In this document: piece by piece, positions 249-44,196 of the stretch | How the letters are laid out: each line of letters starts with the position of its first letter | How positions within the stretch are numbered: the first letter of the stretch is position 1 | Source of the DNA: Acidimicrobiia bacterium | Lineage (GTDB): Bacteria; Actinomycetota; Acidimicrobiia; Spongiisociales; ZC4RG35 | NCBI GenBank assembly: GCA_035544615.1 | Contig: DATKEA010000126.1 | Location: forward strand, 50-64,049 | DNA length: 64,000 bases | Reading direction: 5' to 3' | The notes under the pieces: generated by a model | Told to the model about the DNA's origin: nothing | The model's input: the letters and a program-made list of their open reading frames with translations, nothing else | The model's database searches: none | Position numbers and translations under genes: made by a program

Positions 249-265
249 CACGCCCCGTTTCCCTG
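249..265 (+). repeat. R1a, copy of the CACGTCCCGTTTCCCTA family
   Basis: cacgccccgtttccctg. Confidence 0.8.
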
Positions 266-290
266 TGGCGGCCTGCGCGGCGCCACCCAA

Positions 291-307
291 CACGTCCCGT
301 TTCTAAA
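291..307 (+). repeat. R1b, family copy (42 nt after R1a)
   Basis: cacgtcccgtttctaaa, followed by gccgcgcttatcaagacg (right-arm-like). Confidence 0.8.
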
Positions 308-488
308 GCCGCGCTTATCAAGACGCTGGCGACTCTCCCGGCCTCTTGTAGCCCACAGCCTTGGCCTTCGCGAGTGCCTCGAGAAGGCCAAGTGGAACCG
401 GGCAGCACCAGGACACTCTGCTCCGCGAGGCAACTCACCAAGGAGTAGGTTCGGAACCATCGACGGCCGGGGGGAAAGGAGGTGGCAG

Positions 489-782
489 ATGGCTACCTAT
501 GTCAGTCTGGTGAACTTCACCGACCAGGGGATGCGCAACTACACGGACTCGCCGAAGCGGGCCGGGGCGTTCAAGGAGATGGTCGAGGACATGGGAGGCA
601 CGGTCAAAGAGATCGTGTGGACCATGGGGGCCTACGACGTGGTGGCGATAATCGAGCTGGCAGACGACGAGACGGCGACTGCGGCCGCCCTCAGGATCTC
701 GTCTCTTGGCAACGTGCGCACCACGACTCTGCGTGGATTCGACATGGAGGAAATGGAAGGGATCATCCAGAAGGCCGGTTAA
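489..782 (+). CDS. GYD-domain small protein (97 aa)
   Basis: ATG 489 with GAAAGGAGG at 474-482. MATYVSLVNFTDQGMRNY...GAYDVVAIIE fits the GYD-family pattern. The tracked 189 start is read-through across repeat copies. Confidence 0.8.
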   Translation: MATYVSLVNFTDQGMRNYTDSPKRAGAFKEMVEDMGGTVKEIVWTMGAYDVVAIIELADDETATAAALRISSLGNVRTTTLRGFDMEEMEGIIQKAG

Positions 783-799
783 CCGGCCTTCGACGATTA

Positions 800-818
800 C
801 GGGAGGATCGACCTCCCG
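800..818 (+). terminator. stem-loop just downstream of the GYD gene
   Basis: cgggagg-atcga-cctcccg, a 7-bp perfect stem 18 nt after the stop. No clear T-tract, so function is uncertain. Confidence 0.3.
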
Positions 819-1117
819 GCCGTCGATCACCCTCGAGCAGGGCGGCCACCTCGTCGATGAGTTCGTCGATGCGGTCAAACGCGGAGTCGTCCTGAGTCGA
901 CGTCATTTCATCCGCGGTCGACCTCTGGTTGTCGAGGATCATCCGACCGAGTTGCGATGGAATCATGACCTGGCCCCTTGCTCTGCTGGCGGAAGCATCG
1001 GCAGGAAGGTCCGACGGGTGAGTAGCCCCAACGACCCATCCCTGACCGACGGACCCGCTCGGGGACCAGAACCCATCGGGGGACCGAGACGACTACCTCC
1101 CCGGACGGGGGATTAGC

Positions 1118-1546
1118 TCAACGAGACTCCAGGATCCGTTTTAGCTCTGCGAGGTTGTCGGCGACAGCTTCCTTGACCCTCGAGCCCGCCAGCTGGCCGA
1201 CCGTGCCGAGGATTCCCCGCGGTCGGAGCTCCACCTCGTTCGTCAACCGGGTACTCCGCTCAAGGGGTTCAAGATGGTATTCCAGCTCGGCCGAGAAGGG
1301 ACCGAGTGTTCCGCTGAGGCCGAGAGACCGATGAGGTTCGTAGACAGTGAGTTCGAAGGTCTCCTCACTCCTGCTTGGAAGGGTTCGAACCTGCCGGTAG
1401 GTGGTACCTACTCCGACCGGCCCGTCGGACGTCTTCTCTGTCAACGCGATGGCGTAGTTCCACGAGGGCACGTTTTCGAAGTCGGCCAGGTACGCGTAGA
1501 CGTCCTCGATGGGACGCTCGACATCGACGACATTGACGAAGTGCAC
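1118..1546 (-). CDS. SRPBCC (START / polyketide cyclase-dehydrase-like) family protein
   Basis: 142-aa ORF. The N-terminus VERPIEDVYAYLADFENVPSWN and the overall beta-rich pattern are typical of SRPBCC ligand-binding proteins. Confidence 0.75.
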   Translation of the reverse strand: MHFVNVVDVERPIEDVYAYLADFENVPSWNYAIALTEKTSDGPVGVGTTYRQVRTLPSRSEETFELTVYEPHRSLGLSGTLGPFSAELEYHLEPLERSTRLTNEVELRPRGILGTVGQLAGSRVKEAVADNLAELKRILESR

Positions 1547-1640
1547 GATGGCGCCACCTTCGAGTCTGATTGGCCGCGAGCCACCCTACCGGAACACCTT
1601 TAGGCCCTGGCTCGTGCAGGGTGGCAACCAGGGCGGACAG

Positions 1641-1654
1641 GTCCCGTTTCCCTA
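1641..1654 (+). repeat. R2a, family copy
   Basis: gtcccgtttcccta. Confidence 0.85.
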
Positions 1655-1680
1655 CGGCCCCGAGTCGGCGGTGCCTGCTG

Positions 1681-1694
1681 GTCCCGTTTCTCAA
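1681..1694 (+). repeat. R2b, family copy (exactly 40 nt after R2a)
   Basis: gtcccgtttctcaa. Confidence 0.8.
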
Positions 1695-1792
1695 TCAGAG
1701 GACGCACTCACCGTCGGCAGCCCGATGCGGTTGAGGATCATCCACCCAATGCGGAGCGACGATGAGGCCGTGGGGCGCCACCGATTCCGAGG

Positions 1793-2281
1793 CTAGTTGC
1801 GGGTGCCGTGTCGATCCGTGGGCACCGCATGGGGAGGGGCTTCGGGTTTGTACGAACTGGCTTCGATGTCGGCGTCGATTGCGGCTATTTCCGCAAGGGA
1901 GGTTGAAGCCAGCTCTCGGATAAGTGCGTCCTGGGTGCGGGCCCAGATGTCGTGAACAGGGCATGTTTCTTCCCAGTCACAAGGACCATCGCGGAGGACG
2001 CAATGGTCGAACCTGGCGGGACCTTCGGCGGCTTCAACGATATCGAGGACACTGATATCTCCGGGGTGTCGGGCCAGTCGGTAGCCCCCTTTAGGCCCGT
2101 GGTTGGCTTCCAGCAGTCCCTCGGCGACCAATCCAGCCAGGATCAGGGTCAAGGTCTTGTACGGAATGTGCATCTCGGTGGAGATCTGACGGGCTTGGCG
2201 GAGACCCGACCCGTAGTGGCGTCCAACCGAGATCATGGCCCTGACGGCGTAGTCGCCTTTTCGTTTGAGGCTTAGTTGCAT
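1793..2281 (-). CDS. Rrf2-family transcriptional regulator
   Basis: MQLSLKRKGDYAVRAMISV...ISTEMHIPYKTLTLILAGLVAEGLLEANHGPKGGYRLAR is a typical Rrf2 winged-HTH N-terminus. C-terminal Cys residues (CVLRDGPCDWEETCP) suggest a cluster-binding type. Confidence 0.85.
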   Translation of the reverse strand: MQLSLKRKGDYAVRAMISVGRHYGSGLRQARQISTEMHIPYKTLTLILAGLVAEGLLEANHGPKGGYRLARHPGDISVLDIVEAAEGPARFDHCVLRDGPCDWEETCPVHDIWARTQDALIRELASTSLAEIAAIDADIEASSYKPEAPPHAVPTDRHGTRN

Positions 2282-2317
2282 CGATGCTCCTGGACTCTAT
2301 CCAAAACTACCCTCAGC

Positions 2318-2334
2318 ATGCCAGAATTCTGCAT
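2318..2334. promoter_or_regulatory. near-palindrome ATGCCAGAATTCTGCAT in the AT-rich Rrf2 divergent intergenic region
   Basis: Core cagaattctg (2322-2331) is a perfect palindrome. It is nested inside ctaccct(2307-2313)/agggtag(2356-2362), and a second tagaattcca follows at 2341-2350. Candidate Rrf2 operator. Confidence 0.35.
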
Positions 2335-2399
2335 CCGGTTTAGAATTCCAAACAAAGGGTAGAGTATGGACGAAGGAAGCAGCTATATGAGGAGAACTC

Positions 2400-2672
2400 A
2401 TGATTACTACTGCAATCCGGCATTCTGTGTCGGACTATGGAAAATGGAAGACCGTGTACGACACATTCCGCCCCACATCCGAAGGAGCGAAGTTCGCAAG
2501 AGTGAATCGCTCGGTTGAGGATCCCAACATGGTGACCGTGGTCGCCGGTTTCGATACTCTCGAGTTGGCGAATGCCTTCATCAACAACCCCGACCTCAAG
2601 GTCAGGATGACCGAAGCCGGCGTCGTTGGTTCCCCGAGGATCGAGATCAACGAGGAAGTCGAGTCGATCTAG
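2400..2672 (+). CDS. small alpha+beta protein (DUF3764-like / Dabb-like), divergent from the Rrf2 gene
   Basis: 90-aa ORF with ATG 2400 and GAGGAG RBS 6 nt upstream. MITTAIRHSVSDYGKWKTVYD...MVTVVAGFDTLELANAFI resembles small ferredoxin-fold proteins. Family assignment is weak. Confidence 0.6.
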   Translation: MITTAIRHSVSDYGKWKTVYDTFRPTSEGAKFARVNRSVEDPNMVTVVAGFDTLELANAFINNPDLKVRMTEAGVVGSPRIEINEEVESI

Positions 2673-2753
2673 ATCGGATCCCCGGATCCTGGCGAAGGAC
2701 CCCCGGGGAAAGCTGGAACTGGCAGACGTCTGATCAAGGCATCTGAATGATCG

Positions 2754-2786
2754 AGGCCCCCTGGAGGACATTCCGACGGGGGGCCT
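2754..2786 (+). terminator. GC-rich hairpin downstream of the 2400-2672 gene
   Basis: aggccccc (2754-2761) pairs with gggggcct (2779-2786). It lies immediately 5' of repeat copy R3. Confidence 0.35.
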
Positions 2787-2797
2787 TCCTTACGTCA

Positions 2798-2814
2798 CAC
2801 GTCCCGTTTCTAAA
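2798..2814 (+). repeat. R3, family copy with conserved right arm
   Basis: cacgtcccgtttctaaa + tcgcgcgtttgacatggagaattcctc. Confidence 0.85.
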
Positions 2815-2856
2815 TCGCGCGTTTGACATGGAGAATTCCTCAACAGCCTTGCGCTG

Positions 2857-2870
2857 TCGCGATATCGCGA
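2857..2870. promoter_or_regulatory. perfect 14-bp palindrome TCGCGATATCGCGA upstream of the phd/doc-like pair
   Basis: Lies 13 nt upstream of ATG 2883 and abuts a TATCAT -10-like hexamer (2871-2876), with TTGCGC at 2849-2854. This is the usual position of an RHH antitoxin autoregulatory operator. Confidence 0.45.
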
Positions 2871-2882
2871 TATCATGAAGCC

Positions 2883-3092
2883 ATGAGCAAGCAAACAACC
2901 GTGCGTCTTCCCGAAGACCTGGCAGATGATGCCGAGGCGGTGGCTCGCGTCCAAGGTACGAGCGTCAATGCCCTGATCATCGAAGCGCTCAGCAATGAGA
3001 TCCCGCGGGTCCGAGAGGATGAAGAATTCACCAGCCGAGCGAAGCGGCTACTCGAACGTGATCGGGAGTTGCTCGAACGTCTCGGCCGGTGA
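2883..3092 (+). CDS. ribbon-helix-helix (CopG/Phd-like) antitoxin
   Basis: MSKQTTVRLPEDLADDAEAVARVQGTSVNALIIEAL is an RHH N-terminus. Its stop overlaps the GTG of the downstream Doc-like ORF (GTGA at 3089-3092). Confidence 0.75.
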   Translation: MSKQTTVRLPEDLADDAEAVARVQGTSVNALIIEALSNEIPRVREDEEFTSRAKRLLERDRELLERLGR

Positions 3093-3498
3093 TCCGGTAC
3101 ATCACCCTGGCGGAGTACATGTGGTTGGCCGAGCAGGTCACCGGTGTCGACGCCGACGTGCTGGCCAAGGCCTCCAGGGCGGATCTGGCTGATTCAGCGT
3201 TGCACGCCCCACAAGCGGGCTTCGGTGACAACGAGTTCTACCCGGACATCTTCGACAAGGCGGCGGTGCCGGGGTGTGCCGGCTGGCCTGGAATCATCCT
3301 CTGATGGACGGCAACAAGCGCGCAGCGTGGGCGGCGCTCGTCATGTTCGTGGACCTCAATCGGGGCAGCTGGGATCCAGATCCTCCTGATGTTGAACAAG
3401 CGGAACAGGCCATGCTCCCAATAGCGGCACATGAAGTCGACGAGACCTGGACGGCGGCCTGGCTCCGCGACCGTGTCAGTTTCGTTGGGCGGGACTGA
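3089..3498 (+). pseudogene. doc: Doc/Fic-family toxin, split by a frameshift near 3266-3276
   Basis: The N-terminal part (3089-3304) ends DIFDKAAVPGCAGWPGIIL*. The Fic motif HPLMDGNKRAAWAALVMF continues in another frame (3274-3498). Confidence 0.7.
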
Positions 3499-3600
3499 CC
3501 GATTTGAGAGGAGAGGACCCCAAGGGACTCTCCAGCAATACCCAAAGGTTTGACACGACCCTGAGATGTGGGGATCAAGTGGCTGGCCAGCCAGACTCAA

Positions 3601-3617
3601 CGCGTTCCGTTTCCCTA
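3601..3617 (+). repeat. R4, family copy with conserved right arm
   Basis: cgcgttccgtttcccta + tcgcgggtttgacatgggaggatccctc. Confidence 0.85.
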
Positions 3618-3739
3618 TCGCGGGTTTGACATGGGAGGATCCCTCGGGTTGTGCCCTCGCCTCTCCCTCCCAACCGCAACTGGTTCGTTCGGGCTCGCGT
3701 TGCCCAAATAAGGTGGATCGAACCTGGCCAGGGAGTGGC

Positions 3740-4879
3740 ATGAGTTCTTCTCTGTTCGACCGAACCGATTACCCCACCTTGCGCGATGTCGTCTATCTGA
3801 ATCAGGCCTCTCTCGGTCTGATCGGCAAACCCGCTGTCGATGCGATGACAGGGTTCCTCGAAGGTGTGGGTCGTCACGGCAACACATACATGTCCGACGA
3901 AGACGAGGCCGGCTTTCTCGATGGGCTCCGCTCAAAGGCGGCTCAGCTGCTCAGAAGCGACCCGGACCGGGTCGCGATCCTGGCCAGCGCCAGTGAGCTA
4001 CTCGGTCAGATACCTTTCATCCTCGCCCCGGCCGCGGGGACCAAGATCGTTGCGGTGTCTACCGACTTCCCGGCGATAACCCGCCCCTGGTTGCAGTTGG
4101 CCGAGCGGGGCGGCTGCCGGGTGGACTTCGCCCATGACGACCCTGACCTCGATCTGACCGGTGAGCTGGTCCAGCGGATAGACGGAGAAACCGCGGTGGT
4201 GACGGTCGGTTCTGTTCAGTACGCAACCGGGACAGTCGTCGACGTCCCCCGCTTGCGGGAGGCCACCGAACAGGCCGGGGTCCGGCTGGTGGTTGATGCC
4301 ACCCAAGAGGCCGGGGCGACGAACCGCCCGATCGGGTCGTGGGAGGCCGACGTTGTGGTCTCGAGTGGGTACAAGTGGCTCGGCGGCCACGGTGGTGTGG
4401 CCATCGGGGTGATCAGTCGTCAACTACTCGAAGAGCCTCCCGCGCTGCCCGGGTGGATGTCAGCACCGGAACCGTTCGACTTCGACGCAACCCACCTCCT
4501 GCTGGCACCTGACGCACGTCGATACACCCAGTCGACCATCTCATACGCGTCGGCTGCGGGTCTCACCGCCGCCATCGACCAGATCCTCGATTCCGGCCTC
4601 GACAACATCGAACGAGCCGCCTCCGACCTTGCCCATTTGCTCGTCGGCGAGCTGAGACCCTCCGGCTGGCATCCGTTACGGGAGTTGGGTGACCCCTCGG
4701 CGTCCGACCACATCATCTCGCTCAGCCACGACGGGATCGACATGGGACAGGTGACAAGACACCTGAGGACGGTCAGCATCGTTGCCGGTGGTCGTGGCGG
4801 GCGACTGCGCATATCTCTGGCCCCTTACAACAACGAAGACGACGTCGCAGATCTGGTGAGGGCCCTCTGCCAGCTCTGA
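3740..4879 (+). CDS. class V aminotransferase-fold PLP enzyme (cysteine desulfurase / epimerase-like)
   Basis: MSSSLFDRTDYPTLRDVVYLNQASLGL start and SSGYKWLGGHGG PLP-lysine motif. The ATG at 3740 is preferred over the tracked 3566 start, which runs through repeat copy R4. Confidence 0.85.
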   Translation: MSSSLFDRTDYPTLRDVVYLNQASLGLIGKPAVDAMTGFLEGVGRHGNTYMSDEDEAGFLDGLRSKAAQLLRSDPDRVAILASASELLGQIPFILAPAAGTKIVAVSTDFPAITRPWLQLAERGGCRVDFAHDDPDLDLTGELVQRIDGETAVVTVGSVQYATGTVVDVPRLREATEQAGVRLVVDATQEAGATNRPIGSWEADVVVSSGYKWLGGHGGVAIGVISRQLLEEPPALPGWMSAPEPFDFDATHLLLAPDARRYTQSTISYASAAGLTAAIDQILDSGLDNIERAASDLAHLLVGELRPSGWHPLRELGDPSASDHIISLSHDGIDMGQVTRHLRTVSIVAGGRGGRLRISLAPYNNEDDVADLVRALCQL

Positions 4880-4988
4880 GGGGGCGACTGAGTGTGTTTC
4901 GGAGGCCAGACCGGGGTTGACCTCGTTTGTCATCCTCGCCTGACCGCGGCCCGACATTTGGATGGCTGACCAGCGCTCTTACACCTCG

Positions 4989-5005
4989 CACGTCCCGTTT
5001 CCCGC
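4989..5005 (+). repeat. R5, family copy
   Basis: cacgtcccgtttcccgc, between convergent genes. Confidence 0.85.
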
Positions 5006-5055
5006 ACACGGCCGGATGTCCCGACTCCCCGTTGATTCCGTGGCCGCTCTGGCGA

Positions 5056-5454
5056 TCACATGTCTCGCTCTATCAGTGCTGCCCTTCGGCTGGCCGAGGC
5101 CAATCCACGATCGGTCGTGACGATCAACATGTCGAGCTGGCTGGCCAACTCGACGTAGAAGGCGTCGACCAGGCGCAGGTTTCCCCGCCTCCGCCACGCC
5201 CCGGTGAGTAACGGTGCAAGCGGGTGTCGGAAGATCGGTGACGATGCGACGAGGTTGACGCGCTCGGTCACTTGTCTTGTCGTCAGCTGACTGGCCCGAT
5301 GCAGCCTCCCAAGAGCGGAGAGGACCTCTGCGTCGAAATGCCCTGGAGCATGTAGCTCTGCGTTGTGCAGGTGTGCCTCGATCGACGCGGCGTGGTCAGA
5401 ACCAACGAGCAGGTCGACCATCGCCGAGGCGTCGAGAACGAGCGACTCAGCCAA
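5056..5454 (-). CDS. vapC: PIN-domain toxin (VapC type)
   Basis: LVLDASAMVDLL..., DAFYVELA and IVTTD acidic motifs are typical of PIN. It overlaps the upstream antitoxin gene by 8 nt. Confidence 0.85.
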   Translation of the reverse strand: MAESLVLDASAMVDLLVGSDHAASIEAHLHNAELHAPGHFDAEVLSALGRLHRASQLTTRQVTERVNLVASSPIFRHPLAPLLTGAWRRRGNLRLVDAFYVELASQLDMLIVTTDRGLASASRRAALIERDM

Positions 5455-5689
5455 GGCCCTCCAGCTCGTCCTTGGCTCCCTGTAGTGCGACCAGGACGTC
5501 TTTGTGCTCCACTCCGGTTGGGGACAGTGACGCCACCGTCTCCAACCACTCGCCCGTGCGCATGGATGACAGGGCTGACCGGACTGCTTCCTGCGTCAGG
5601 TTCGAAACATTGAGCCCAGCGTCTCTGGCTTCATTGGCCAGTTGGTCGGGTAGGTATACGTTGACTCTCGCCATGCGCATAGTATACAC
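5447..5689 (-). CDS. vapB: RHH antitoxin (VapB type)
   Basis: MARVNVYLPDQLANEARDAGLNVSNLTQEAV is an RHH fold pattern. The true start may be 5674 (MARV...). Confidence 0.75.
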   Translation of the reverse strand: MYTMRMARVNVYLPDQLANEARDAGLNVSNLTQEAVRSALSSMRTGEWLETVASLSPTGVEHKDVLVALQGAKDELEGLG

Positions 5690-5704
5690 ACATTCGAGCG
5701 GCCA

Positions 5705-5715
5705 GATCTTTCCCT
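5705..5715 (+). repeat. R5b, degenerate family copy between the two vapBC pairs
   Basis: atctttccctg. Its flank gcctgagctggagtggag is shared with the flank of R10b at 42601-42618. Confidence 0.5.
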
Positions 5716-5738
5716 GTTGCCTGAGCTGGAGTGGAGAT

Positions 5739-6146
5739 CTACGGGTTGGTTCGGTAGTGGCGGACGGTCACACTAGGTAGATCTGCGAATGCTGACTCGT
5801 CGGCGGTGAGCACCATGCGCTTTGTGGCGCGAGCTGTGGCCGCGATGAGCAAGTCGTGCGCGCCGCGAGGATGCCCTGTCTGCCTTACCGCCACCAGAAG
5901 CTGAGCATGTTCGAAAGCGACATCCCGGTCATAGGAGATTATTGGAACCGAGGCGAGGATCTCGTCCACGTAAGCCTGTCGGTCGGCCTTGGCATGCGGG
6001 GATGCGAGTTCGACCCCCACGACCAATTCGGCGACTGTGATTGCCGCAATTGCTATGTCGTCGTCTTCGTGGATCAGATCGTCGAGATCGATGTCGCCTC
6101 GCTCGGCGTCGATCAGGAAAGTCGTGTCGAGAAGCACGACGCTCAT
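5739..6146 (-). CDS. vapC: PIN-domain toxin (VapC type), second pair
   Basis: VVLLDTTFLIDAERG..., AITVAELVVG and LIAATARA...VLTADESAF are PIN motifs. A 4-nt overlap links it to the antitoxin gene. Confidence 0.85.
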   Translation of the reverse strand: MSVVLLDTTFLIDAERGDIDLDDLIHEDDDIAIAAITVAELVVGVELASPHAKADRQAYVDEILASVPIISYDRDVAFEHAQLLVAVRQTGHPRGAHDLLIAATARATKRMVLTADESAFADLPSVTVRHYRTNP

Positions 6147-6385
6147 GATCTGTTGTCGATCTCAACCAACTCGCGGAGACGCGAGAGCTCCTCTGCCCAA
6201 GCTGAATCTGGTCTGTGACGCTTCAGGATCTCCTTCACCTCGGAGCCACGGCCCTTGGTAATCGGTTCGAGATGTGCCACGGCCTTGCCTCGCCGAATGA
6301 TCGTGTAGTGCTCGTGCGCGTGCTCAACGCTGTCCAGCAAATCGGCGAAGCGTCTTGCTGCTTCGGTGGCTGAGATATCTGGCAT
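6143..6385 (-). CDS. Phd/YefM-type antitoxin
   Basis: ISATEAARRFADLLDSVEHAHEHYTIIRRGKAVAHLEP is the Phd/YefM N-terminal pattern. It is translationally coupled to the PIN gene. Confidence 0.8.
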   Translation of the reverse strand: MPDISATEAARRFADLLDSVEHAHEHYTIIRRGKAVAHLEPITKGRGSEVKEILKRHRPDSAWAEELSRLRELVEIDNRS

Positions 6386-6431
6386 GAGATCAGATTATCA
6401 GATTTCACGATATGGGGGAGCTCATCCGACG

Positions 6432-6449
6432 ACGTGTCCCGTTTCCCTA
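6432..6449 (+). repeat. R6, family copy
   Basis: acgtgtcccgtttcccta. Confidence 0.85.
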
Positions 6450-6629
6450 ACGCCTTCTTGCTCGAACTGCGAGTGGCTGTTCACACGGCTGGCGTGCCTT
6501 TGAGCGGACCGCAGATGGAGACCCCAGCCGGGCACAAGACTTGAATTGGCTGCCCCGATAGCCGGAGGGATGACAAATGCGGCGGAGCGTGCGAGGAGCA
6601 ATCTCACGCAGGATCTGCTGTCGCGACCC

Positions 6630-9938: not shown

Positions 9939-10465
9939 CTCGAGTGGCTCCGGTGCGCGAAGGGGCGTTTCGCTCTGCGCCCCAGGACGTTGTGTTTCGG
10001 AAGCGGATGCTTCTTGCCAGGGTCGTGACGACTCATGATCTCTCCCGGCGCCCCGTGCTCCGTCGGATGCGATTCCGTGGGGCCCCGCCTCTATGGCGAG
10101 GTCCCCAAACCTACGGTTTCTGAGACGACATGCATATAGGGGTTGTTCCCCCAATAGATGCCCAAAGGGGACGTGAGATACTCGTTTGTGGCGAGGGCGT
10201 GAGCGACGAGGAAGCCGACGACGTGGCCGCATGTCTGGCGGCGGCCGGGGGCCCGAGTCGCCCCCGAAAGTAGGTTGGTCGAATCGGACTGAGATCCTGG
10301 CTGAAACAAGGACTGGCCAGCCCGAAGATCTTCATCAGCTATCGCAGGAGCGATGCGGGGGGACATGCGGGCCGGCTTCAAGCCGCCCTGGCCGACTACT
10401 ACGGCGACGGGGCCGTCTGGCTGGATCACGCCGACATCGGCCCGGGACAGGGATTCGCCGAGGCG

Positions 10466-12340: not shown

Positions 12341-12355
12341 CGAGGCGTATGGTTG

Positions 12356-13345: not shown

Positions 13346-13398
13346 GGCATCACGCCGGGGTCTCGAGCGCGTAGCCTCGGCACCGGAAAGGGGACTCG

Positions 13399-14370: not shown

Positions 14371-14373
14371 GGG

Positions 14374-30044: not shown

Positions 30045-30051
30045 GCGCTCA

Positions 30052-32825: not shown

Positions 32826-32828
32826 GGG

Positions 32829-33494: not shown

Positions 33495-33597
33495 GATGTG
33501 ATCGCCTCGCCGTCGGGTCCTCTTCGAATCGTGGCTGATGACCAGCAAGCTACCAGGCGCCGTGAGTTTGAATGCCCAGGCCCGACACGGCATCGGG

Positions 33598-33630
33598 CCG
33601 GTTTCTTCCAGGATCGCGGGTTCTCAATGG
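33598..33630 (+). repeat. R7b, degenerate copy retaining the right arm
   Basis: ccggtttcttccaggatcgcgggttctcaatgg, versus R4 ccgtttccctatcgcgggtttgacatgg. Confidence 0.5.
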
Positions 33631-33682
33631 CACGAAGTGGCGATAGATTCTCCCTACAGGTGGGCAAGGGGAGTGCGTCGGA

Positions 33683-37038: not shown

Positions 37039-38195
37039 CCCGCTCGACAAGTGGCCGGTTGTCCCCGGGTCGGATCCGGGTCCTGTTCGTGATCGATTCC
37101 CTTGGTCCAGGTGGGGCGGAACGGACCCTTAGGCGGGTCGTCGAATTCATCGACCCGACCAACTTCGAGTGCCGGGTCGCCGTTCTTCAGGTCAGGGAAG
37201 GCAATTCCGTGGCAGATGAGATCCGGGATCTCGGAGTCCCGGTCGACCTGGTCCGGGTCGACCGACTCAGATCCCTGGCCGGGCATGCACGGCTCCTCCG
37301 ATACCTCCTCGCTTACCGTCCGAGCATCATCCACACCCACCTGGAGTTCTCGCACACACTCGGCGGTATCTACGGTCGATTGGTCGGGGCCAGGCCGATT
37401 GGGACCATCCACACTTTCGCCCTTGGGAGGGCGTCGCGCGAAAAGAAGCGGCTGGGCTTGATGTGGTTCTCTCTCCGCAACACCCACGTCAAGGTCGTTG
37501 CCCCTTCCCGATCGGGGATGGTTCACGCCGAGGCCGTGGGAAGGATCCCGGCCGACCGGCTCGTGGTGCTGCACAACGGGGTAGACCTGGAGACGTTCAC
37601 GCCCGACGCTTCGCCCCGGGCACGGGTCCGAGAGGAGCTTGGCATCGCCGCTGGCTCACCGCTGTTGATCACCGTCGCTGTCCTGCGCAGTGGCAAGGGA
37701 ATCAACGATCTCGTCTCAGCCATGTCCGAGATCCTCAATTCGATCCCGGACGCCATGGCGTTGATCGTCGGCGACGGCGATGAACTTGTCGCCCTCCAGC
37801 GGCTGGCAGGGGAGGCAGGAGTGGCAGACCGGGTCGTCTTCACCGGCAGCCGCGATGATGTCGGGGTCTTACTGTCTGCATCGGATGTCTTCGTCCTGCC
37901 CACGCATGAGGACCTGCTTCCGACGGTGGTCGCCGAGGCGATGGCCGCCGGTTTGCCAGTCGTGGCGAGTGACGTGGGCGGGTTGCGCGACATGGTCGAC
38001 GAGGACGTCACGGGGATCCTCTACCCGGCCGGGGACATCCCGGCGCTGACTCAGGCATGTGTCGAGCTGCTCGACGACAGTTTCCGCCGTGAGTCGTTGG
38101 GCAGAGCCGGCCGACTCGTTGCACAGGAGAAGTTCGACATCCGAAAACACGTCGAGGCGCTCCAGCGGCTCTACGTGGAAAGCTCCAGAGGATGA
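37035..38195 (+). CDS. GT4-family glycosyltransferase
   Basis: VLFVIDSLGPGGAER N-terminus and HEDLLPTVVAEAMAAGLPVVASDVGGLRDMV C-terminal motif. 4-nt overlap with neighbours. Confidence 0.85.
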   Translation: MTRSTSGRLSPGRIRVLFVIDSLGPGGAERTLRRVVEFIDPTNFECRVAVLQVREGNSVADEIRDLGVPVDLVRVDRLRSLAGHARLLRYLLAYRPSIIHTHLEFSHTLGGIYGRLVGARPIGTIHTFALGRASREKKRLGLMWFSLRNTHVKVVAPSRSGMVHAEAVGRIPADRLVVLHNGVDLETFTPDASPRARVREELGIAAGSPLLITVAVLRSGKGINDLVSAMSEILNSIPDAMALIVGDGDELVALQRLAGEAGVADRVVFTGSRDDVGVLLSASDVFVLPTHEDLLPTVVAEAMAAGLPVVASDVGGLRDMVDEDVTGILYPAGDIPALTQACVELLDDSFRRESLGRAGRLVAQEKFDIRKHVEALQRLYVESSRG

Positions 38196-39316
38196 GCGGA
38201 GAGGAGAGGGTGGGCCCGGTCCTCCTGGTGGACTTGGCCAAGGGACTCGGCGGCGCGGAGGTGCGAGTCGTCGACACCGCCTTACTGCTGGCAGAAAGCG
38301 TCGAGTGCTCGATCGTCGCCCTGGAAGACACACCGCTTCATCGCCGGGCGAAGGCAGCCGGGATTCCGGTCCATCCACTCCGGTACCAGCGTCACGATCC
38401 GAGGATCGTTGGGGCCGTGCGTGATCTGATTCGATCTCATCGGTACCGTGTCGTCGACGCACACAACGTGCAGTCGCAATTGTGGGGGCTCCTTGCAGCC
38501 AGGGCCGAGCGACTGCCGGGTCGAGTCTCGACCGTGCACAGCGAGTATCGATTCGAGAACCCCGGTCCCAAAGGCCGCGCCCACGAGCAGGTTTTGAGAA
38601 GAAACATGGCGTGGGGATCGAGTTTCGTGGCGGTCAGCGAGGGCATCGCCCGGTACCTGAGGGACGTCCTCGGCCCACAGCCCCAGATCGAGCTCATCAG
38701 GCGCGCTTTCCCTGTTCCCCGGCCCCCAGCCGGAGCACAGATACGTCGTTCCGACCTCGGGTGGGACGAACAAGACTTCGTGGTGGGTGTGATCGGGCGC
38801 CTCGCGATCGCAAAAGGTCACCCGGTCCTCTTCCAGGCGTTGTCGATCCTCCGTGAAAAGGGGGTGAGGCTTCGGTGCTACATCGTGGGCGAAGGGGCGG
38901 AGCGGGAGAGTCTGGAACGCGAGGTTCGCTCGTCCGGTTTGCTCGACAGCGTCCACTTCGCCGGCTTTCGGGAAGATGTAGGTGCAGCCCTCGATTTCAT
39001 CGATCTGCTTTGCCTCCCTTCCCTCAGCGAGGGGCTTCCCAATGTCGTGCTCGAAGCCGTCGTATCCCAAGTACCGCTGGTCGCCACCTCGGTGGGTGAG
39101 ATCCCTTCGCTCTTGCGAGACGGCAAAGATGCCCTGCTCGTTCCACCCAACGACCCTGTGGCCCTGGCAGCCGCCTTGGAGCGAGCCCGAGCGTCATCGG
39201 AGCGGCTCTCTCGACTCGCCGATTCGGCGTATGACACACTGGCGAAGGCTCTGAGCGGTGACTGGATCGCGCAGACGATCGAGCACTATTGGCGGGCTCA
39301 ACGATCACCACGGTGA
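38192..39316 (+). CDS. GT4-family glycosyltransferase
   Basis: SLSEGLPNVVLEAVVSQVPLVATSVGEIPSLLRDGKDALLVPP is the E(x7)E-type GT-B motif. Confidence 0.85.
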   Translation: MSGEERVGPVLLVDLAKGLGGAEVRVVDTALLLAESVECSIVALEDTPLHRRAKAAGIPVHPLRYQRHDPRIVGAVRDLIRSHRYRVVDAHNVQSQLWGLLAARAERLPGRVSTVHSEYRFENPGPKGRAHEQVLRRNMAWGSSFVAVSEGIARYLRDVLGPQPQIELIRRAFPVPRPPAGAQIRRSDLGWDEQDFVVGVIGRLAIAKGHPVLFQALSILREKGVRLRCYIVGEGAERESLEREVRSSGLLDSVHFAGFREDVGAALDFIDLLCLPSLSEGLPNVVLEAVVSQVPLVATSVGEIPSLLRDGKDALLVPPNDPVALAAALERARASSERLSRLADSAYDTLAKALSGDWIAQTIEHYWRAQRSPR

Positions 39317-39415
39317 CGGCAGGCGCCGAGTCCCCTTGGCCCAGATGCGCGGGAAGCGATGCCACCGGACACGATCGACAACCGCCTCGCCGCCCACCAA
39401 GCCAGGGGCGAGTCG

Positions 39416-39432
39416 CACGTCCCGTTTCCCTA
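39416..39432 (+). repeat. R8, exact consensus copy
   Basis: cacgtcccgtttcccta, between convergent genes. Its last 3 nt are the methyltransferase stop codon on the other strand. Confidence 0.9.
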
Positions 39433-40149
39433 GGCCGGTGGGGGTCTTCTCCTTGGGCGCCATGCGACGAAGTATGCGATCGAGCCGGAGACCTCTATCT
39501 CCACTTCGTCGAAGGAGGCTTCAAGCATCTTTCGGAGACCGTCAACGTCGTCTTCGCTGTTGTCGAATCCGCCGTGAAGGTTCGCCACGCGCAAGAACAT
39601 CCTTGCCGCCCACGCGTGTTCTGCGGACAACCCAAGCACTGTGCCGCCGAAGAGCACGCCATTGTTGGTCAGGACTGCGGCGATGTGCTCGATGGCCGGA
39701 ACCTTGGCCGCCATGGGCCCGGGGAGGCAGTGGATCACGTGGGCAAGCGCTGCTGAGTCGAACGTCCCCTTGACCGGAAGGGGCTCGAGCACGCTGGCCT
39801 TGATCGTCTTGGGATTCCACTTGGCCAAGGTTTGGGTGCAGTGGTCGAGCACGTGAGGATTCGGGTCGACGAGGGTCAACTCGATGTCATCTGGAGGCTC
39901 CGACTCGGCGATGAACCACCCTGTCCCCGGCCCGACGTCCAAGTGCCGATGCCCCATGTGCTTCCTGTAGACCTCAATCCCGGGATCCGATCCCGTTTTC
40001 CAGACTCGAGGGGCCATGAACCCGACCACCCACGGGTCATACCACCTCAGAAAACGGGGCGTGTAGTCCTTGAAGCCTTTGTAACCAGGCTCATTCGGGT
40101 CCGACGTGACCGACCTCCTTCGCCCTCGACCCGCCAAGGTACATCTCAA
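39430..40149 (-). CDS. class I SAM-dependent methyltransferase
   Basis: HLDVGPGTGWF motif I. The stop TAG is formed by the last 3 nt of repeat copy R8. The start is uncertain: TTG 40149 directly follows the HEPN stop, and AAGGAGG sits at 40114-40120. Confidence 0.7.
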   Translation of the reverse strand: MRCTLAGRGRRRSVTSDPNEPGYKGFKDYTPRFLRWYDPWVVGFMAPRVWKTGSDPGIEVYRKHMGHRHLDVGPGTGWFIAESEPPDDIELTLVDPNPHVLDHCTQTLAKWNPKTIKASVLEPLPVKGTFDSAALAHVIHCLPGPMAAKVPAIEHIAAVLTNNGVLFGGTVLGLSAEHAWAARMFLRVANLHGGFDNSEDDVDGLRKMLEASFDEVEIEVSGSIAYFVAWRPRRRPPPA

Positions 40150-40150
40150 C

Positions 40151-40573
40151 CTAGGTCTGTCGGGCGCAGGCCTCGAGGATTGCTCCGGCTGACCTGATGG
40201 CCTCAACGACTTCAGCCTTGCCGAAGCTCCTCGACCCGTACTCAGATCGGTTCCTCTCGCGGCGAAGACGGTCGAACTGTTCGAGAGCGGGTTCGCCGGT
40301 CTCCCTGGCGAGGACTTTGGCATATTGAGCGAGCGCCTGATGGGACCCTGGCCGGCTGCGCACCCTGCGCCCGGTCATCAACAAGGCGGCAGCGACGGCT
40401 TTGCGGGCGGCGTCATATGCCAAGACGTATGCGCCCGAGGGGTCCATGGTTTGGATGGCCTGTGCGGCTTCGAGATGACGTCTCGCATCGCTGATCCACT
40501 GCTCGGCCATCGGCCGGTCTGATTCGACGGCCTCGATGAGACCTTTGGCGATGAGGTCGTTGAGTTCGCTCAC
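40151..40573 (-). CDS. HEPN-domain protein (toxin-like partner of the MNT)
   Basis: 140-aa all-helical ORF with RLRRERNRSEYG near the C-terminus. 4-nt overlap with the upstream nucleotidyltransferase gene. Confidence 0.7.
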   Translation of the reverse strand: MSELNDLIAKGLIEAVESDRPMAEQWISDARRHLEAAQAIQTMDPSGAYVLAYDAARKAVAAALLMTGRRVRSRPGSHQALAQYAKVLARETGEPALEQFDRLRRERNRSEYGSRSFGKAEVVEAIRSAGAILEACARQT

Positions 40574-41145
40574 ACGAGCTGGATCCGCGGTCGACTCCGT
40601 ACAGCCCGCTCAAACGCTCCGTTAGTGCCAGCCCATTCGTCCTCGGATCGCAAGACCACGTTGATCGGCCTTCCCACCTCTACTTCAACTGCCGAAACCG
40701 CGCCGTAAACCTGCCCAGGATCCGGTTCTCCTATCACCATGAGATCGATGTCGTGTGGTGCCATCTGGTCGGGGTCGGCCCAGGACCCGAAGATGAATGC
40801 TTCTTTGATGCCATCGATCGTGGCCAGAGCCTCCCGCAGTAGGGGTTCTGGTCCCATCGACTTGGTCAGAAGGCTGCGGAGCTCCGTGTAAACAGGAGAG
40901 GACCGGTTTGGTTCGACAAGACGGGATCTGCCCGAAGTCTTGGAAACGACCAAGCCCGATCTCTCGAGCCGTTCCACCTCCTTGTGGACCCCTCCCATCG
41001 ATGTGCCGGTGCGTTGAGCAAGCTGGCTGAGCGAGAGCGGCTCCTGGGCAAAGACGAACAGTTCGGCCAGCAATCGTTCTTGCTCTGGTGATTTGAAGAG
41101 CGGGAGCTCGGATCTAGGTTTCACGAACCATGAATGTAGGTTCAC
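40570..41145 (-). CDS. winged-HTH + minimal nucleotidyltransferase (MNT) protein
   Basis: LSQLAQRTGTSMGGVHKEVERLERSGLV (wHTH) and AFIFGSWAD...DIDLMVIG (GS...DxD NTase motif). Confidence 0.75.
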   Translation of the reverse strand: MNLHSWFVKPRSELPLFKSPEQERLLAELFVFAQEPLSLSQLAQRTGTSMGGVHKEVERLERSGLVVSKTSGRSRLVEPNRSSPVYTELRSLLTKSMGPEPLLREALATIDGIKEAFIFGSWADPDQMAPHDIDLMVIGEPDPGQVYGAVSAVEVEVGRPINVVLRSEDEWAGTNGAFERAVRSRPRIQLV

Positions 41146-41293
41146 GCAGAGTGAAAGTCAATTCCCTTCCAGGTTTGACACGGACGTCGGGCTCCTTCCA
41201 GAGACCGAGAGGCGTTCTCTGCTCCGTCCCGTCAGGTCGGCTAGGCCCTCGCGCCTTGTGCCGCAATATGAATAGAAGAGTCCAGCGTCGTCT

Positions 41294-41793
41294 TCACGAT
41301 CCGGACCGGGCGAGATCCAGCCGCAGCAGGTGCTCGGGCTCATCGTCGTCCCACTGGACGTCCCCGACCAGCGTGAAGCCGTAGTGAAGGTAGAACGGCA
41401 GTGGTCCGCCTCGCCTTTCCCACAGCTTGTCCAGAGAATGTCCGCGTTTGGCCGGGTCCGGAGGTATTCGACCACTGCATCGATCGTTGCCGTGCCGAAG
41501 CCCCGACCCTGGGACGCCTGGTCGATGAGAAGGCGCCACAGGTAGTACGGCCCAACCAGATCGTCGCCCAAATCCTCGATGTTGTCGCTGATCATGACGA
41601 AGCCGATCAGCTGCTCTCCGTCATGCACCGACCACATTCGTGGCATGGCCTGCGGCTCGTCTTCGGCGTCCTCGAAGTGGCTCTCCATCGACCCCAGGAA
41701 GCGCTCCTGGCCAGGCGCTCGGCGTAGGCCGAGAACGGCGGCACGATCTTGGTCGGTCACGATGTCACGGAGCTGGACGGTGGTCACGGTCAA
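41294..41793 (-). pseudogene. GNAT N-acetyltransferase disrupted by a frameshift near 41400-41420
   Basis: The frame from 41793 gives WRLLIDQASQGRGFGTATIDAVVEYL...ILWTSCGKGE, then nonsense. The expected C-terminus GGPLPFYLHYGFTLVGDV continues in another frame and ends at 41294. The 500-nt span is not a multiple of 3. Confidence 0.65.
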
Positions 41794-41904
41794 GAACCGA
41801 ACCTAGTCACCGGCGACCTCCCCGCATCTGCGGAAGGGCCGGCCGCGTCGAATGCTCGCTGCGACAGAGTTGATCGATCTCCTGGCTTGAATTGACGCCC
41901 AGCG

Positions 41905-41920
41905 CCCTCCCGTTTCCCTA
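41905..41920 (+). repeat. R9, family copy
   Basis: ccctcccgtttcccta, between divergent genes. Confidence 0.85.
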
Positions 41921-42046
41921 ACCGCAGTGGATCCCAACGGTGCAAACCTCACCTGCTCGTCCGCGGCGCAATCGAGCAGGATTCGAGAAGCCATCTCAAC
42001 GCATAGCCCCTAGTTTCAGGTTGTAACGCCTAAAGGAGGTCGAGAG

Positions 42047-42493
42047 ATGAGCACCACGAAAAAGTCCGGTTCGGACGGTTTCTCGGCGGCGGAGCGTGCC
42101 GCCTTGAAGGCACGCACCCAGGAGCTGAAAGCGCAAGGCCGCAGCGGCCAGAAGAAGGCCGAGAACGAGAGCGCCGTCCTCGACGCGATCGCCGAGATGC
42201 CGGATGTCGATCGCTCGCTTGCCGAACGTATCCACGCCCTCGTCACGGCGAACGCGCCGGAGCTTCTGCCCAAGACCTGGTACGGCATGCCCGCCTACGG
42301 GAATGCGGATGGAAAGGTTGTCTGCTTCTTCAAAGCCGCTGCCAAGTTCGAAGGCCGCTACGCGGTCTTGGGATTCGAAGATGCGGCCACGCTCGACGAG
42401 CACCCCATGTGGCCGGTCGTGTTCGCGATCGTCGAATGGACCCCCGCGGTCGAGAAGAAGGTCCGGGCGCTGGTCAAGGCTGCGGTCGCCTGA
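42047..42493 (+). CDS. DUF1801 (YdhG/iron-chaperone-like) domain protein
   Basis: Strong AGGAGGT RBS. TWYGMPAYGNADGKVVCFFKAAAKF pattern. Confidence 0.7.
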   Translation: MSTTKKSGSDGFSAAERAALKARTQELKAQGRSGQKKAENESAVLDAIAEMPDVDRSLAERIHALVTANAPELLPKTWYGMPAYGNADGKVVCFFKAAAKFEGRYAVLGFEDAATLDEHPMWPVVFAIVEWTPAVEKKVRALVKAAVA

Positions 42494-42561
42494 GCGTCGC
42501 CGCCGGAGAGGGGAGCTCAGACAAGGCTGCGAGCGGGCGTTCGCTCGTACGCGAACGGGCC

Positions 42562-42577
42562 GACCCCCGTTTCCCTA
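42562..42577 (+). repeat. R10a, family copy
   Basis: gacccccgtttcccta, preceded by the hairpin cgttcgc-tcgta-gcgaacg. Confidence 0.85.
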
Positions 42578-42583
42578 GGTCCA

Positions 42584-42597
42584 GGTCCGTTTACCCA
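42584..42597 (+). repeat. R10b, degenerate copy 20 nt after R10a
   Basis: ggtccgtttaccca. Confidence 0.55.
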
Positions 42598-42620
42598 TCC
42601 GCCTGAGATGGAGTGGAGTT

Positions 42621-42814
42621 TCACGGATTGGTTCGGTAGTGGTGGACGCTCGCGCCGGTAGATCTGCAAAAGCTGATTCGTCGGCGGTGAACAGGGTGCG
42701 GTTTGTGGCGCGGAATATGGCCGCGATGAGCGAGTTCGATGCCCACCACCAATTCGGCGACCGTGCCGCAATTGCTATGTCGTCGTCTTCGAGGATCAAC
42801 AGGCAGGCCGCCAT
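42621..42814 (-). pseudogene. vapC: decayed copy of the 5739-6146 vapC gene
   Basis: DNA-level identity blocks to 5739-5855 and 6001-6075. An internal deletion of about 155 nt plus at least two small indels break the frame. The original stop is equivalent to 42621-42623. Confidence 0.7.
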
Positions 42815-42931
42815 CGACCCAGGAGAAGGCGTGCCGGTCGTGGTGGGGCCTGAAACCCGTCCCGCATCACCGTCGCCGGTGGCTTCGGTGTTGTCCGTCT
42901 CCGTCTACCTTTCGGTCCTCGGAAAGGACCC

Positions 42932-44134
42932 ATGAAAACAAACGGCTTCCGTCGGGCCAGGATCGCCAGGATCACCCCGCCCAGGCTGCAGACCTTGGAC
43001 GAGAGCCGTGGTCGGACCGCGACCTGGCTCGAGCTCTTCTACGACCTGGCGTTCGTCGTAGTGGTGGCGGTGCTCGGGCAACGGCTCCACGATGACATCT
43101 CGTGGTCCGGGCTCGCTTCGTTCGGTGGCTACTTTGCCCTGCTCTGGTGGCTGTGGGTGAGTCACACCTTCTACGCCGACAGATACGACACCGATGACCT
43201 TGTGTACCGGCTGCTGGCCATGGCTCAGATGCTGGCCGTGTTGGTCATCGCCGCGGCCCTCACCGCCGGGCCGGCCGAGTCGACAGTGGCCTTCTCCGCG
43301 GGATACGCCACGGCGCGGCTGGTCCTCCTCGCCATGTACGTCAGGGTCTACCGCCATGTCACCGAGACCCGTTACCTGGTCGGCGGTTACCTGATCGGAT
43401 TCGGGCTCGCCGCGGCTCTGTGGACCACGTCGATCTTCGCCCCGGAGCCCTCTCGGTTTGCCCTCTGGGCGGTGGCACTCACCGTCGACCTGGCTACGCC
43501 CTGGCTCATGCGCCGCCAGCAGGCGGAGGTGCCTCTCGACGTCTCGCACCTCCCGGAGCGTTTCGGTCTGTTCACGATACTCGTCATGGGCGAGTCGCTT
43601 GCGGCGGTGATGGTCGGTCTCGGGCATCACCACTGGTCTTGGGGCTCGGTGCTCGGTGCAGCCCTCGGCGTCGGGCTGACGACCACCCTGTGGTGGCTGT
43701 ACTTCGACAACGCCGAGGGAAGCGTGGTTCGGAGACGTGACACCGACCGCCGGACCTGGCGGCCCACTGCCTGGATCTATGCCCACCTCCCACTTGCCGC
43801 TGCCCTGGCCGCATTGGGGGTCGCGCTCGAGCATATCGTGACCGAAGTCGGCGATGGAAGGATGGATCCAAGTCTTCGTTGGCTTCTGGTCGGGGCGGTA
43901 ATCATCGCCCTGAGTGCCATGGCGTTGACCCAGCTGGCCTCGCTTGGTCACCCGATGGGCTCGTTGAACCGGGCGATCTCGTTGAACCGACTAGCCGCTC
44001 TCCCCATCCTGTTGGTGATCGGCGTCTTGGGGCGTCCCAGACCGCTCGTGGTCGTGCTCGGTGTCCTTGGGGTCTGTGTCGCTGTCCTAATCGCCGACTT
44101 GTGGGCTTGGGATCGCGAAGACGACCGCGGGTAG
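42932..44134 (+). CDS. ltrA: low-temperature-requirement A (LtrA) family membrane protein
   Basis: ATWLELFYDLAFVVVVA N-terminal signature and about 11 TM helices. Confidence 0.8.
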   Translation: MKTNGFRRARIARITPPRLQTLDESRGRTATWLELFYDLAFVVVVAVLGQRLHDDISWSGLASFGGYFALLWWLWVSHTFYADRYDTDDLVYRLLAMAQMLAVLVIAAALTAGPAESTVAFSAGYATARLVLLAMYVRVYRHVTETRYLVGGYLIGFGLAAALWTTSIFAPEPSRFALWAVALTVDLATPWLMRRQQAEVPLDVSHLPERFGLFTILVMGESLAAVMVGLGHHHWSWGSVLGAALGVGLTTTLWWLYFDNAEGSVVRRRDTDRRTWRPTAWIYAHLPLAAALAALGVALEHIVTEVGDGRMDPSLRWLLVGAVIIALSAMALTQLASLGHPMGSLNRAISLNRLAALPILLVIGVLGRPRPLVVVLGVLGVCVAVLIADLWAWDREDDRG

Positions 44135-44176
44135 TCCTGGGCTAGCCCGCAGCGGACTGAGCCATTTCTGCGCGAG

Positions 44177-44196
44177 CACGTCATTCCGTTTTCAAG
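44177..44196 (+). repeat. R11, degenerate copy (3-nt insertion)
   Basis: cacgtc-att-ccgttttcaag, intergenic between ltrA and the cyclase gene. Confidence 0.5.

Follow-up and report, generated by a model that had tools for sequence, protein, structure and literature searches.

Integrons are the textbook platform for the capture of gene cassettes, and their attC sites are imperfect inverted repeats of 57–141 bp in which an R'' box (RYYYAAC) pairs with an R' box (GTTRRRY). Tandem modules bounded by direct att repeats of ~15–20 bp, with the recombinase acting mostly in trans, are also formed by the accretion of cis-mobilizable and integrative mobilizable elements (CIMEs and IMEs) beside integrative and conjugative elements (ICEs) and by the composite staphylococcal cassette chromosomes (SCC) at rlmH in staphylococci; such arrays are anchored at a single conserved attB, which is the 3' terminus of a gene or of a tRNA, carry an integrase or Ccr gene within or near them, and consist of modules of kb to tens of kb. 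The pdif modules of Acinetobacter plasmids are Xer-dependent and bounded by 28-bp XerC-spacer-XerD sites whose orientation alternates around each module, a Xer/dif site being made of two 11-bp arms around a 6-bp spacer. Arrays of attC sites without a neighbouring integrase, or clusters of attC sites lacking integrases (CALIN), exist as well, and the IntegronFinder survey found no complete integrons in Actinobacteria (PMC4889954). Here, we describe a cassette array in a 64-kb stretch of an Acidimicrobiia genome (assembly GCA_035544615.1, contig DATKEA010000126.1, positions 50 to 64,049; hereafter "the window", i.e., the whole stretch analyzed), in which a short intergenic site with the 17-nt consensus cac-GTCCCGTTTC-CCTA lies at the edges of the cassettes. 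We consider it probable that this sequence is the common core of att-type sites, through which a trans-acting site-specific recombinase builds and shuffles arrays of cassettes.

A first-pass annotation, made from the letters of the window, had proposed that same-strand copies of this site mark module boundaries. This was confirmed: the + strand carries twelve strong and three degenerate copies, spread from 249 to 44.2 kb, and the − strand none. The good copies start at 249, 291, 1638, 1678, 2798, 3601, 4989, 6433, 17644, 39416, 41904, and 42561, i.e., at offsets of 0–4 nt from the positions first given. The exact 12-mer CCCGTTTCCCTA was found six times, as originally counted and on the + strand only, and 0 times in 100 dinucleotide-preserving shuffles of the window. 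Allowing ≤3 mismatches to the 17-mer CACGTCCCGTTTCCCTA yielded 10 copies, all on the + strand (0.21 expected in 64 kb), and the shorter core CCGTTTC occurs 15 times on the + strand and twice on the − strand. A position weight matrix (PWM) trained solely on sites from other loci, and then applied to the window with a cut-off of 12 bits, gave 12 matches on the + strand and 0 on the − strand, ranging from 247 to 41,902; the copy at 42559 scored 10.3 bits, slightly under this cut-off. Among the degenerate copies, those at 42584 (GGTCCGTTTACCCA) and 44177 (CACGTCATTCCGTTTTCAAGA) were graded plausible, while the one at 5705 is weak in sequence, with a perfect site at the equivalent spot beside a homologous phd-vapC cassette in another locus (L068). 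A further copy suggested at 33598 (GGGCCGGTTTCTTCC) was not supported (PWM <8 bits). Past 44.2 kb no good copy was detected in the window, in line with the first reading, and the PWM gave only weak + strand matches at 49484, 50088, and 62416; the 20 kb of the window made up of core genes hold no strong site.

All supported copies are intergenic on a Pfam-checked gene map, and their orientation is independent of that of the genes, as they are found between convergent, divergent, and head-to-tail genes alike; at 39416, the CTA of the site is complementary to the TAG stop codon of a methyltransferase gene. These features had been noted from the start, as had the poor fit of a promoter or terminator role, and a consensus scan of the sites detected neither a sigma-70-type promoter nor an intrinsic terminator. 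No match to an RNA family was obtained for the window in Rfam at the gathering score, and ARAGORN detected no tRNA or tmRNA in it, leading us to reject an att site derived from either.

The same site was identified in other genomes by scanning a species-representative genome collection and metagenome contigs for the pattern formed by two closely spaced copies (hereafter "doublet"), and additional loci were obtained from the genomic contexts of homologues of an MNT protein encoded in the window. The doublet scan returned three metagenome-assembled genomes (MAGs; two labelled Acidimicrobiia/Acidimicrobiaceae and one 2.64-Mb contig labelled Acidobacteriota) and 13 credible metagenome contigs. Across 69 sites in 21 loci from independent assemblies, 68 lie on the majority strand of their locus and 1 on the opposite strand. 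Spacing between sites in these 21 loci is bimodal, with ~20 intervals of 38–46 nt and ~20 of 0.57–2.7 kb, plus a few of 4–22 kb. Conservation in a logo of 64 sites is confined to ~17 nt (c-a-c-GTCCCGTTTC-C-C-T-A), so that unrelated cassettes have little else in common to drive homologous exchange. The arrays abut different genes in the window and in loci L077, L088, L091, and L110, and 9 kb of core genes in L091 are without a site; an even spread of the motif on both strands near core genes, as for a generic repeat or regulator site, was not seen in the sampled DNA.

Cassettes recur between loci in different company, and the alignments of recurring cassettes each stop within GTCCCGTTTC(CC). 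The phd/doc cassette of the window (2803–3617) corresponds to positions 6231–7041 of L070 with 90.5% identity and different neighbours, and its tail is also found in L067; in a three-way alignment, the tails are identical through ...CGT(C/T)CCGTTTCCCTA and diverge directly after. The phd-vapC cassette (5709–6403) is found at 85% identity in L068 (1872–2566), where two perfect sites flank it, and the vapBC cassette at 85% in L066 (2–381), again beside a site. A HEPN/MNT cassette stands alone in L068, L077, L088, and L091, and a methyltransferase cassette occurs on its own in L084 and L086, such that these four cassettes are seen in other orders and contexts across L068, L066, L077, L084, L086, L088, and L091. 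Downstream of a cassette with GYD and SRPBCC genes, motif-flanked in L070, the window has an Rrf2 cassette while L070 has TIR, cyclase, and Fic cassettes, the common parts being 97% identical. In L077, cassettes flank both sides of an amidohydrolase gene that lies in the core region of the window (92% identity). In L088, a solitary HEPN/MNT cassette with a perfect site on each side sits in a metabolic gene neighbourhood, and the 20.5-kb locus holds no perfect sites besides these two. Across contexts, the core and its 5' flank go with the upstream cassette and a 4-nt tail (CCTA, TCAG, TAAA, or CCCA) with the downstream one, which locates the exchange within GTCCCGTTTC(CC). Modules have thus been gained and lost at the motif between relatives, with breakpoints where the first-pass annotation had expected them. 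Its suggestion that the copies are scars of cassette accretion holds to that extent; the arrays are not a classical integron (no attC hairpin or inverted partner, see below), and the recombinase that it placed outside the window was found at no locus examined.

The GYD and SRPBCC genes are also found in L059–L064, partly without the motif. In L059–L061 and L064 (e.g., L059 9864–11011), the pair is 90–97% identical and the motif is missing altogether; upstream, these loci have a portion of the antitoxin-gene remnant seen in the window. They may represent an array that has since decayed or, alternatively, the place from which the cassette was derived, and the presence of this gene pair with and without flanking sites among close relatives may bear on the origin of cassettes. 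Separately, positions 339–2655 of L086, between a site and a doublet, hold a cassette of three genes (233, 104, and 416 aa), all three without a Pfam match.

The site is accompanied by a second conserved sequence. An accessory box, GGTTTGAC(A), is found on the same strand as the core, 54–67 nt upstream of it in 11 cassette tails and 18–20 nt downstream of it (TCGCGCGTTTGACAT) in 7 cassette heads. In 198 kb, 20 of 33 same-strand GGTTTGAC boxes lie ≤100 nt from a site, against 1 of 16 on the opposite strand, and the box with ≤1 mismatch is present at −80 to −40 of 13 of the 62 unique sites (0.5 expected). By eye, the TTGACA within the box has no −10 partner. Both the phd/doc and the HEPN/MNT cassettes carry the box at each end, so that a circular copy would read box, ~47 nt, core, ~6 nt, box. 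By analogy, this layout recalls the arm-type sites around an attP core, and the GGTTTGAC box may be a putative arm-type binding site. The doublets, for their part, are units of 38–46 nt that are found in many contexts and fall into two conserved spacer families, the type 1 spacer having GGTGTGAC five bases ahead of the second core.

A variant of the site was detected in a sister Acidimicrobiia lineage (contigs of GCA_022563805.1 and related metagenomes), in which the MNT protein is 69% identical and the motif described above is absent. There, the sequence CACGTCC-TAGTTCTTCG (pattern caaCACGTCC[TC][AG][AG]TTCTTCG) occurs five times within 11 kb on one strand (− strand of L100, at 1817, 5663, 9131, 9712, and 11019; also in L102 and L103), at module edges, among them the two edges of a PemK pair and the two of HEPN/MNT; other modules there include LigD/ligase and AMP-binding genes. 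The variant shares its left half and the GTTTGACAT flank with the main site, and GCGCAGTTTGACATGG follows one copy. A shared left half and box around a different center is as expected if site and binding protein co-evolve.

In the mechanism that we propose, the recombinase would be encoded elsewhere in the genome and supplied in trans. A cassette would be the unit between two co-oriented cores, mostly 0.6–2.7 kb and in a few cases operon-sized (4–22 kb), and would be excised as a circle with one core, through a crossover inside GTCCCGTTTC(CC), before being reinserted at any other core. Under this proposal, excision and reinsertion at any core would let arrays grow by accretion, reshuffle, and decay through core deletion. 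In the circular cassette, the GGTTTGAC boxes would lie on either side of the core as directly repeated copies, similar to attP arm-type sites, while the 38–46-nt doublet units would behave as empty cassettes. The asymmetry and strict strand polarity of the site fit either the "common core" of an ordinary integrase or a strand-specific HUH-type enzyme. As a recombinase was found at no locus, we infer the enzymatic catalysis of the exchange, and with it the kind of enzyme and the circular intermediates.

Several observations weigh against this mechanism. Searches of the 64-kb window, in which every sizeable open reading frame (ORF) was scanned against Pfam or NCBIfam and Pfam-less ORFs were rechecked against NCBIfam and, for one, the PDB (a 454-aa protein at 47993–49357 is secreted and without a PDB match), revealed no gene for a tyrosine or serine recombinase, a transposase, or an HUH enzyme. 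Likewise, there was no recombinase ≤10 kb from the sites in about a dozen other loci, based on ORFs or precomputed Pfam hits inspected around sites in L066–L068, L076, L077, L083, L086, L088, L091, and L110. An intI or PF00589-type gene next to the array was found neither in the window, where the left end of the array lies outside, nor in the flanks of ~12 loci. The circular junction was not observed, and no clean pair of empty and occupied sites was obtained: relatives of L088 are 82–88% identical, motif-less, and carry a GntR gene at the equivalent place, and are too diverged for an empty-site comparison. Arrays are located at several chromosomal places without a recognizable primary attB or attI, and the core has no dyad symmetry, which is unusual, though not excluding, for the core of a tyrosine or serine recombinase. 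Finally, the supporting loci come mostly from a few soil metagenomes and MAGs.

Some of these observations are what one would expect from a lineage-specific interspersed intergenic repeat, similar to repetitive extragenic palindromes (REPs) or miniature inverted-repeat transposable elements (MITEs), with the 60-nt doublet as its unit, which would spread by itself while modules are shuffled secondarily through homologous or illegitimate recombination between its copies, with no dedicated recombinase. Doublet units do form conserved families across many contexts, sites are found at several chromosomal places rather than in one array, and no array has a linked recombinase. We nevertheless regard this explanation as unlikely. 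The ~17 nt common to unrelated cassettes are short for RecA-dependent exchange, and the junctions are precise and in register. REPs and bacterial interspersed mosaic elements (BIMEs) are palindromic and occur in both orientations, unlike sites co-oriented 68 to 1 that form neither a hairpin nor terminal inverted repeats, and the sampled core DNA is free of sites. The fixed offset of the accessory box further suggests an assembled protein–DNA complex. Alternatively, the motif could be the binding site of a regulator, an insulator, or a nucleoid-type protein that marks or controls horizontally acquired modules, each of which would bring its own copy to the module edge. Two short conserved boxes (core and GGTTTGAC) at fixed spacing and direct-repeat doublets ~four helical turns apart would be compatible with this option, and GTCCCGTTTT-type iterons in an unrelated IMG/VR contig indicate that such sequences can be protein-binding repeats. 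However, the site ignores gene orientation and comes without a sigma-70-type promoter or intrinsic terminator, and binding by itself leaves the homology breaks within the core and the bracketed solo cassette of L088 unexplained, making this option decidedly improbable.

A classical integron array, i.e., a CALIN with divergent attC sites whose integrase is absent from the cluster, appears hardly tenable, even though the arrays are reminiscent of one, with co-oriented sites delimiting small cassettes that are frequently promoter-less or reversed and that abound in toxin-antitoxin and GNAT genes, and the integrase could lie outside the window. The site is no imperfect palindrome: folds of 140 nt around ten sites gave no common hairpin, the best match to the core complement in the 150 nt flanking each side was no better than at random positions, and an alignment of doublets gave no conserved structure (−1.65 kcal/mol), no covariation, and no terminal inverted repeats. 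With neither a hairpin nor an inverted partner, the site is not attC-like. Moreover, the core GTTTCCC mismatches the R' consensus GTTRRRY and has no RYYYAAC partner, and many junctions consist of the 17-nt site alone. That complete integrons were not found in Actinobacteria in the survey (PMC4889954) points in the same direction. Site-specific recombination in trans at the 17-bp core remains the reading that we favor.

Along the window, the array opens with a doublet (249..307, + strand) made of CACGCCCCGTTTCCCTG (249–265) and CACGTCCCGTTTCTAAA (291–307), which score 22.4 and 25.7 bits and are separated by a 25-nt spacer. Cassette 1 (308..1637) holds an antitoxin-like remnant at ~318–480 (−), followed by a GYD gene at 489–782 (+) and an SRPBCC gene at 1118–1546 (−), gene content here and below being assigned through Pfam. 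A second + strand doublet (1638..1694) comprises CAGGTCCCGTTTCCCTA (1638–1654), a spacer, and GGTCCCGTTTCTCAA (1678–1694), with homology to L070 stopping at 1693. It precedes cassette 2 (1695..2797), in place of which L070 holds other cassettes, with an Rrf2 regulator at 1793–2281 (−) and a 90-aa protein at 2400–2672 (+). The next site (CACGTCCCGTTTCTAAA, 2798..2814, +) is followed by the accessory box at 2821–2828 within TCGCGCGTTTGACAT. Cassette 3 (2815..3600, +) encodes a ribbon-helix-helix (RHH) antitoxin (2883–3092) and a frameshifted doc (3089–3498), and has its tail box GGTTTGACAC at 3548–3555 (+). After a site at 3601..3617 (CGCGTTCCGTTTCCCTA, +) and a box at 3624–3631 (TCGCGGGTTTGACAT), cassette 4 (3618..4988, +) carries a class-V aminotransferase (3740–4879). 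The site at 4989..5005 (CACGTCCCGTTTCCCGC, +) has convergent genes on either side and introduces the vapBC cassette 5 (5006..5699, −), with a vapC PIN gene at 5056–5454 and a CcdA/RHH antitoxin at 5447–5689. The degenerate site GCCAGATCTTTCCCTGT (5700..5716, +) separates it from the phd-vapC cassette 6 (5717..6432, −; vapC PIN 5739–6146, Phd antitoxin 6143–6385), a paralogue of which is found at 42601–42798.

Two large modules follow. The site CGTGTCCCGTTTCCCTA (6433..6449, +) opens the 11.2-kb module 7 (6450..17643), which encodes a DUF4062/AAA16/Big_9-cadherin protein, TIR/TPR proteins, Trypsin_2 plus TPR-S, and TIR_2, and is a defence-like TIR/STAND/Big_9 cluster forming one site-bounded module. 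Two TIR proteins in this cluster (6630–17588) are paralogous, with repeats at 10329–10653 and 16006–16330, and an alpha/beta hydrolase is encoded there too. Beyond CGGTTCCCGTTTCCCTA (17644..17660, +), module 8 (17661..39415) is a polysaccharide and cell-envelope region with an oxidoreductase, ATP-grasp, epimerase, sugar transferase, and ECF sigma factor, along with glycosyltransferases, Wzx/Wzz/Wzy, and an SLH protein. While Pfam confirmed the module contents listed in the first-pass annotation, its division of this region into two halves was not upheld: with the copy at 33598 unsupported, the region is a single 21.8-kb module. Between the ATP-grasp and epimerase genes, positions 20475–20690 are occupied by ~4 tandemly repeated copies (54 nt each, 76% matches; period of 18/54 nt).

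The perfect site CACGTCCCGTTTCCCTA (39416..39432, +; 27.3 bits) precedes three fused cassettes (39433..41903, −), with a methyltransferase at 39430–40323, HEPN at 40151–40573, MNT at 40570–41145, and GNAT at 41158–41793. These are fused because the cores between them, at ~40148 and ~41161, have been deleted in the window, leaving an orphan tail box at 41173–41180. The site GCCCTCCCGTTTCCCTA (41904..41920, +), between divergent genes, is followed by cassette 10 (41921..42560, +) with a DUF1801 protein (42047–42493), and then by a site with a degenerate second copy (42561..42598, +; CGACCCCCGTTTCCCTA at 42561–42577 and GGTCCGTTTACCCA at 42584–42597). Cassette 11 (42599..44176) contains a vapC remnant, paralogous to 5739–6146, and an LtrA membrane protein (42932–44134, +), which is the low-temperature-requirement protein PF06772 and not an intron reverse transcriptase. 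The degenerate terminal site CACGTCATTCCGTTTTCAAGA (44177..44197, +) adjoins a cyclase-AAA16-TPR gene. A second LtrA (PF06772) paralogue is located at 50210–51328, apparently in the core region, and the weak site-like matches at 49484 and 50088 suggest that decayed modules may reach ~51.3 kb, where synteny with L077 starts. Overall, the cargo consists of toxin-antitoxin pairs, GNAT, small regulators, and defence genes, and resembles that of sedentary chromosomal integrons. In L110, the region beside a two-site module (12791–20573) encodes a type I restriction-modification system (HsdR/HsdS), a HATPase_c_3 and Metallophos pair, and very large DUF6603 proteins, i.e., a defence-island context.

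The nearest annotated relatives of the window are Acidimicrobiia MAGs, with contig DATHUP010000047.1 of GCA_035462175.1 being 97% identical over window positions 472–1693, and the named homologues of the MNT protein all belong to Acidimicrobiia. A 2-kb Logan contig (SRR8556377; L065) is 100% identical to positions 3419–5415. The 2.64-Mb contig labelled Acidobacteriota (CAVVMG010000001.1; L066) has five sites, all in the same orientation, and a vapBC cassette that shares 85% identity with that of the window; the nearest named homologue of a neighbouring gene is from Acidimicrobiia, yet this gene is widely shared. This leaves two options, a questionable Acidobacteriota label or a transfer of the system between phyla. 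In viral contigs, all 58 matches were single and attributable to chance; an iteron-like cluster of GTCCCGTTTT / ACGGGAC beside a replication-type gene in an IMG/VR contig (L001, 13400–13530) is unrelated by blastn, and its motif match was also set aside as chance. Nothing was found in a plasmid database. A full-text literature search returned no description of the motif string or of Acidimicrobiia cassette arrays, in agreement with the earlier impression that no element with this motif had been described.

If correct, the proposed mechanism would add to integrons a second cassette system with a different mechanism, in an actinobacterial class that is abundant in soil and water, and would imply that modular gene capture has more than one evolutionary origin. 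A handle on the movement of toxin-antitoxin and defence genes in uncultured Actinomycetota would be gained as well, and the short site, later joined by its enzyme, could serve as a new recombination tool.

Compared to known systems, the site is similar to REP/BIME elements in being short, intergenic, lineage-specific, and multi-copy, but these are found genome-wide near core genes as palindromes in both orientations, whereas the site is asymmetric, co-oriented, and associated only with accessory modules in the sampled DNA. Like pdif modules, which also carry resistance genes, the cassettes are small, often toxin-antitoxin modules bounded by short sites in many contexts, and the host-encoded, unlinked recombinase of pdif is matched by the unlinked recombinase proposed here; unlike pdif and other Xer sites, however, the core is one asymmetric block of ~17 nt and is strictly co-oriented. 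With ICE/CIME and SCC accretion, the arrays share an att identity segment directly repeated at every module boundary. They differ from it in having no single attB anchor, as no tRNA or tmRNA is involved and different genes are abutted, and in their units of mostly 0.6–2.7 kb, 40-nt "empty" units, several insertion places, and the absence of a visible integrase. The closest parallel is in function: as in integrons and CALINs, small cassettes set apart by short sites in a common orientation come and go and change order between strains, with a cargo rich in toxin-antitoxin pairs, acetyltransferases, and small proteins of no assigned function. The architecture is distinct, with a 17-bp non-palindromic core and a GGTTTGAC box instead of a folded 57–141-bp attC with R''/R' and L''/L' boxes, no IntI, attI, or Pc found in the window and the loci examined, multi-gene or operon-sized units in both gene orientations, and arrays and single cassettes at several chromosomal places. 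The system is therefore integron-like in function but is not an integron. Taken as a whole, it could quite possibly be an undescribed gene-capture system of Acidimicrobiia, an assessment that we hold tentatively, which would do the job of integrons with double-strand att sites, a 17-bp asymmetric core, direct GGTTTGAC arms, 40-nt empty units, cassettes from toxin-antitoxin pairs to operons at many chromosomal places, and a recombinase, perhaps of a novel kind, that is unlinked to the arrays and has diverged together with its site from one lineage to the next.

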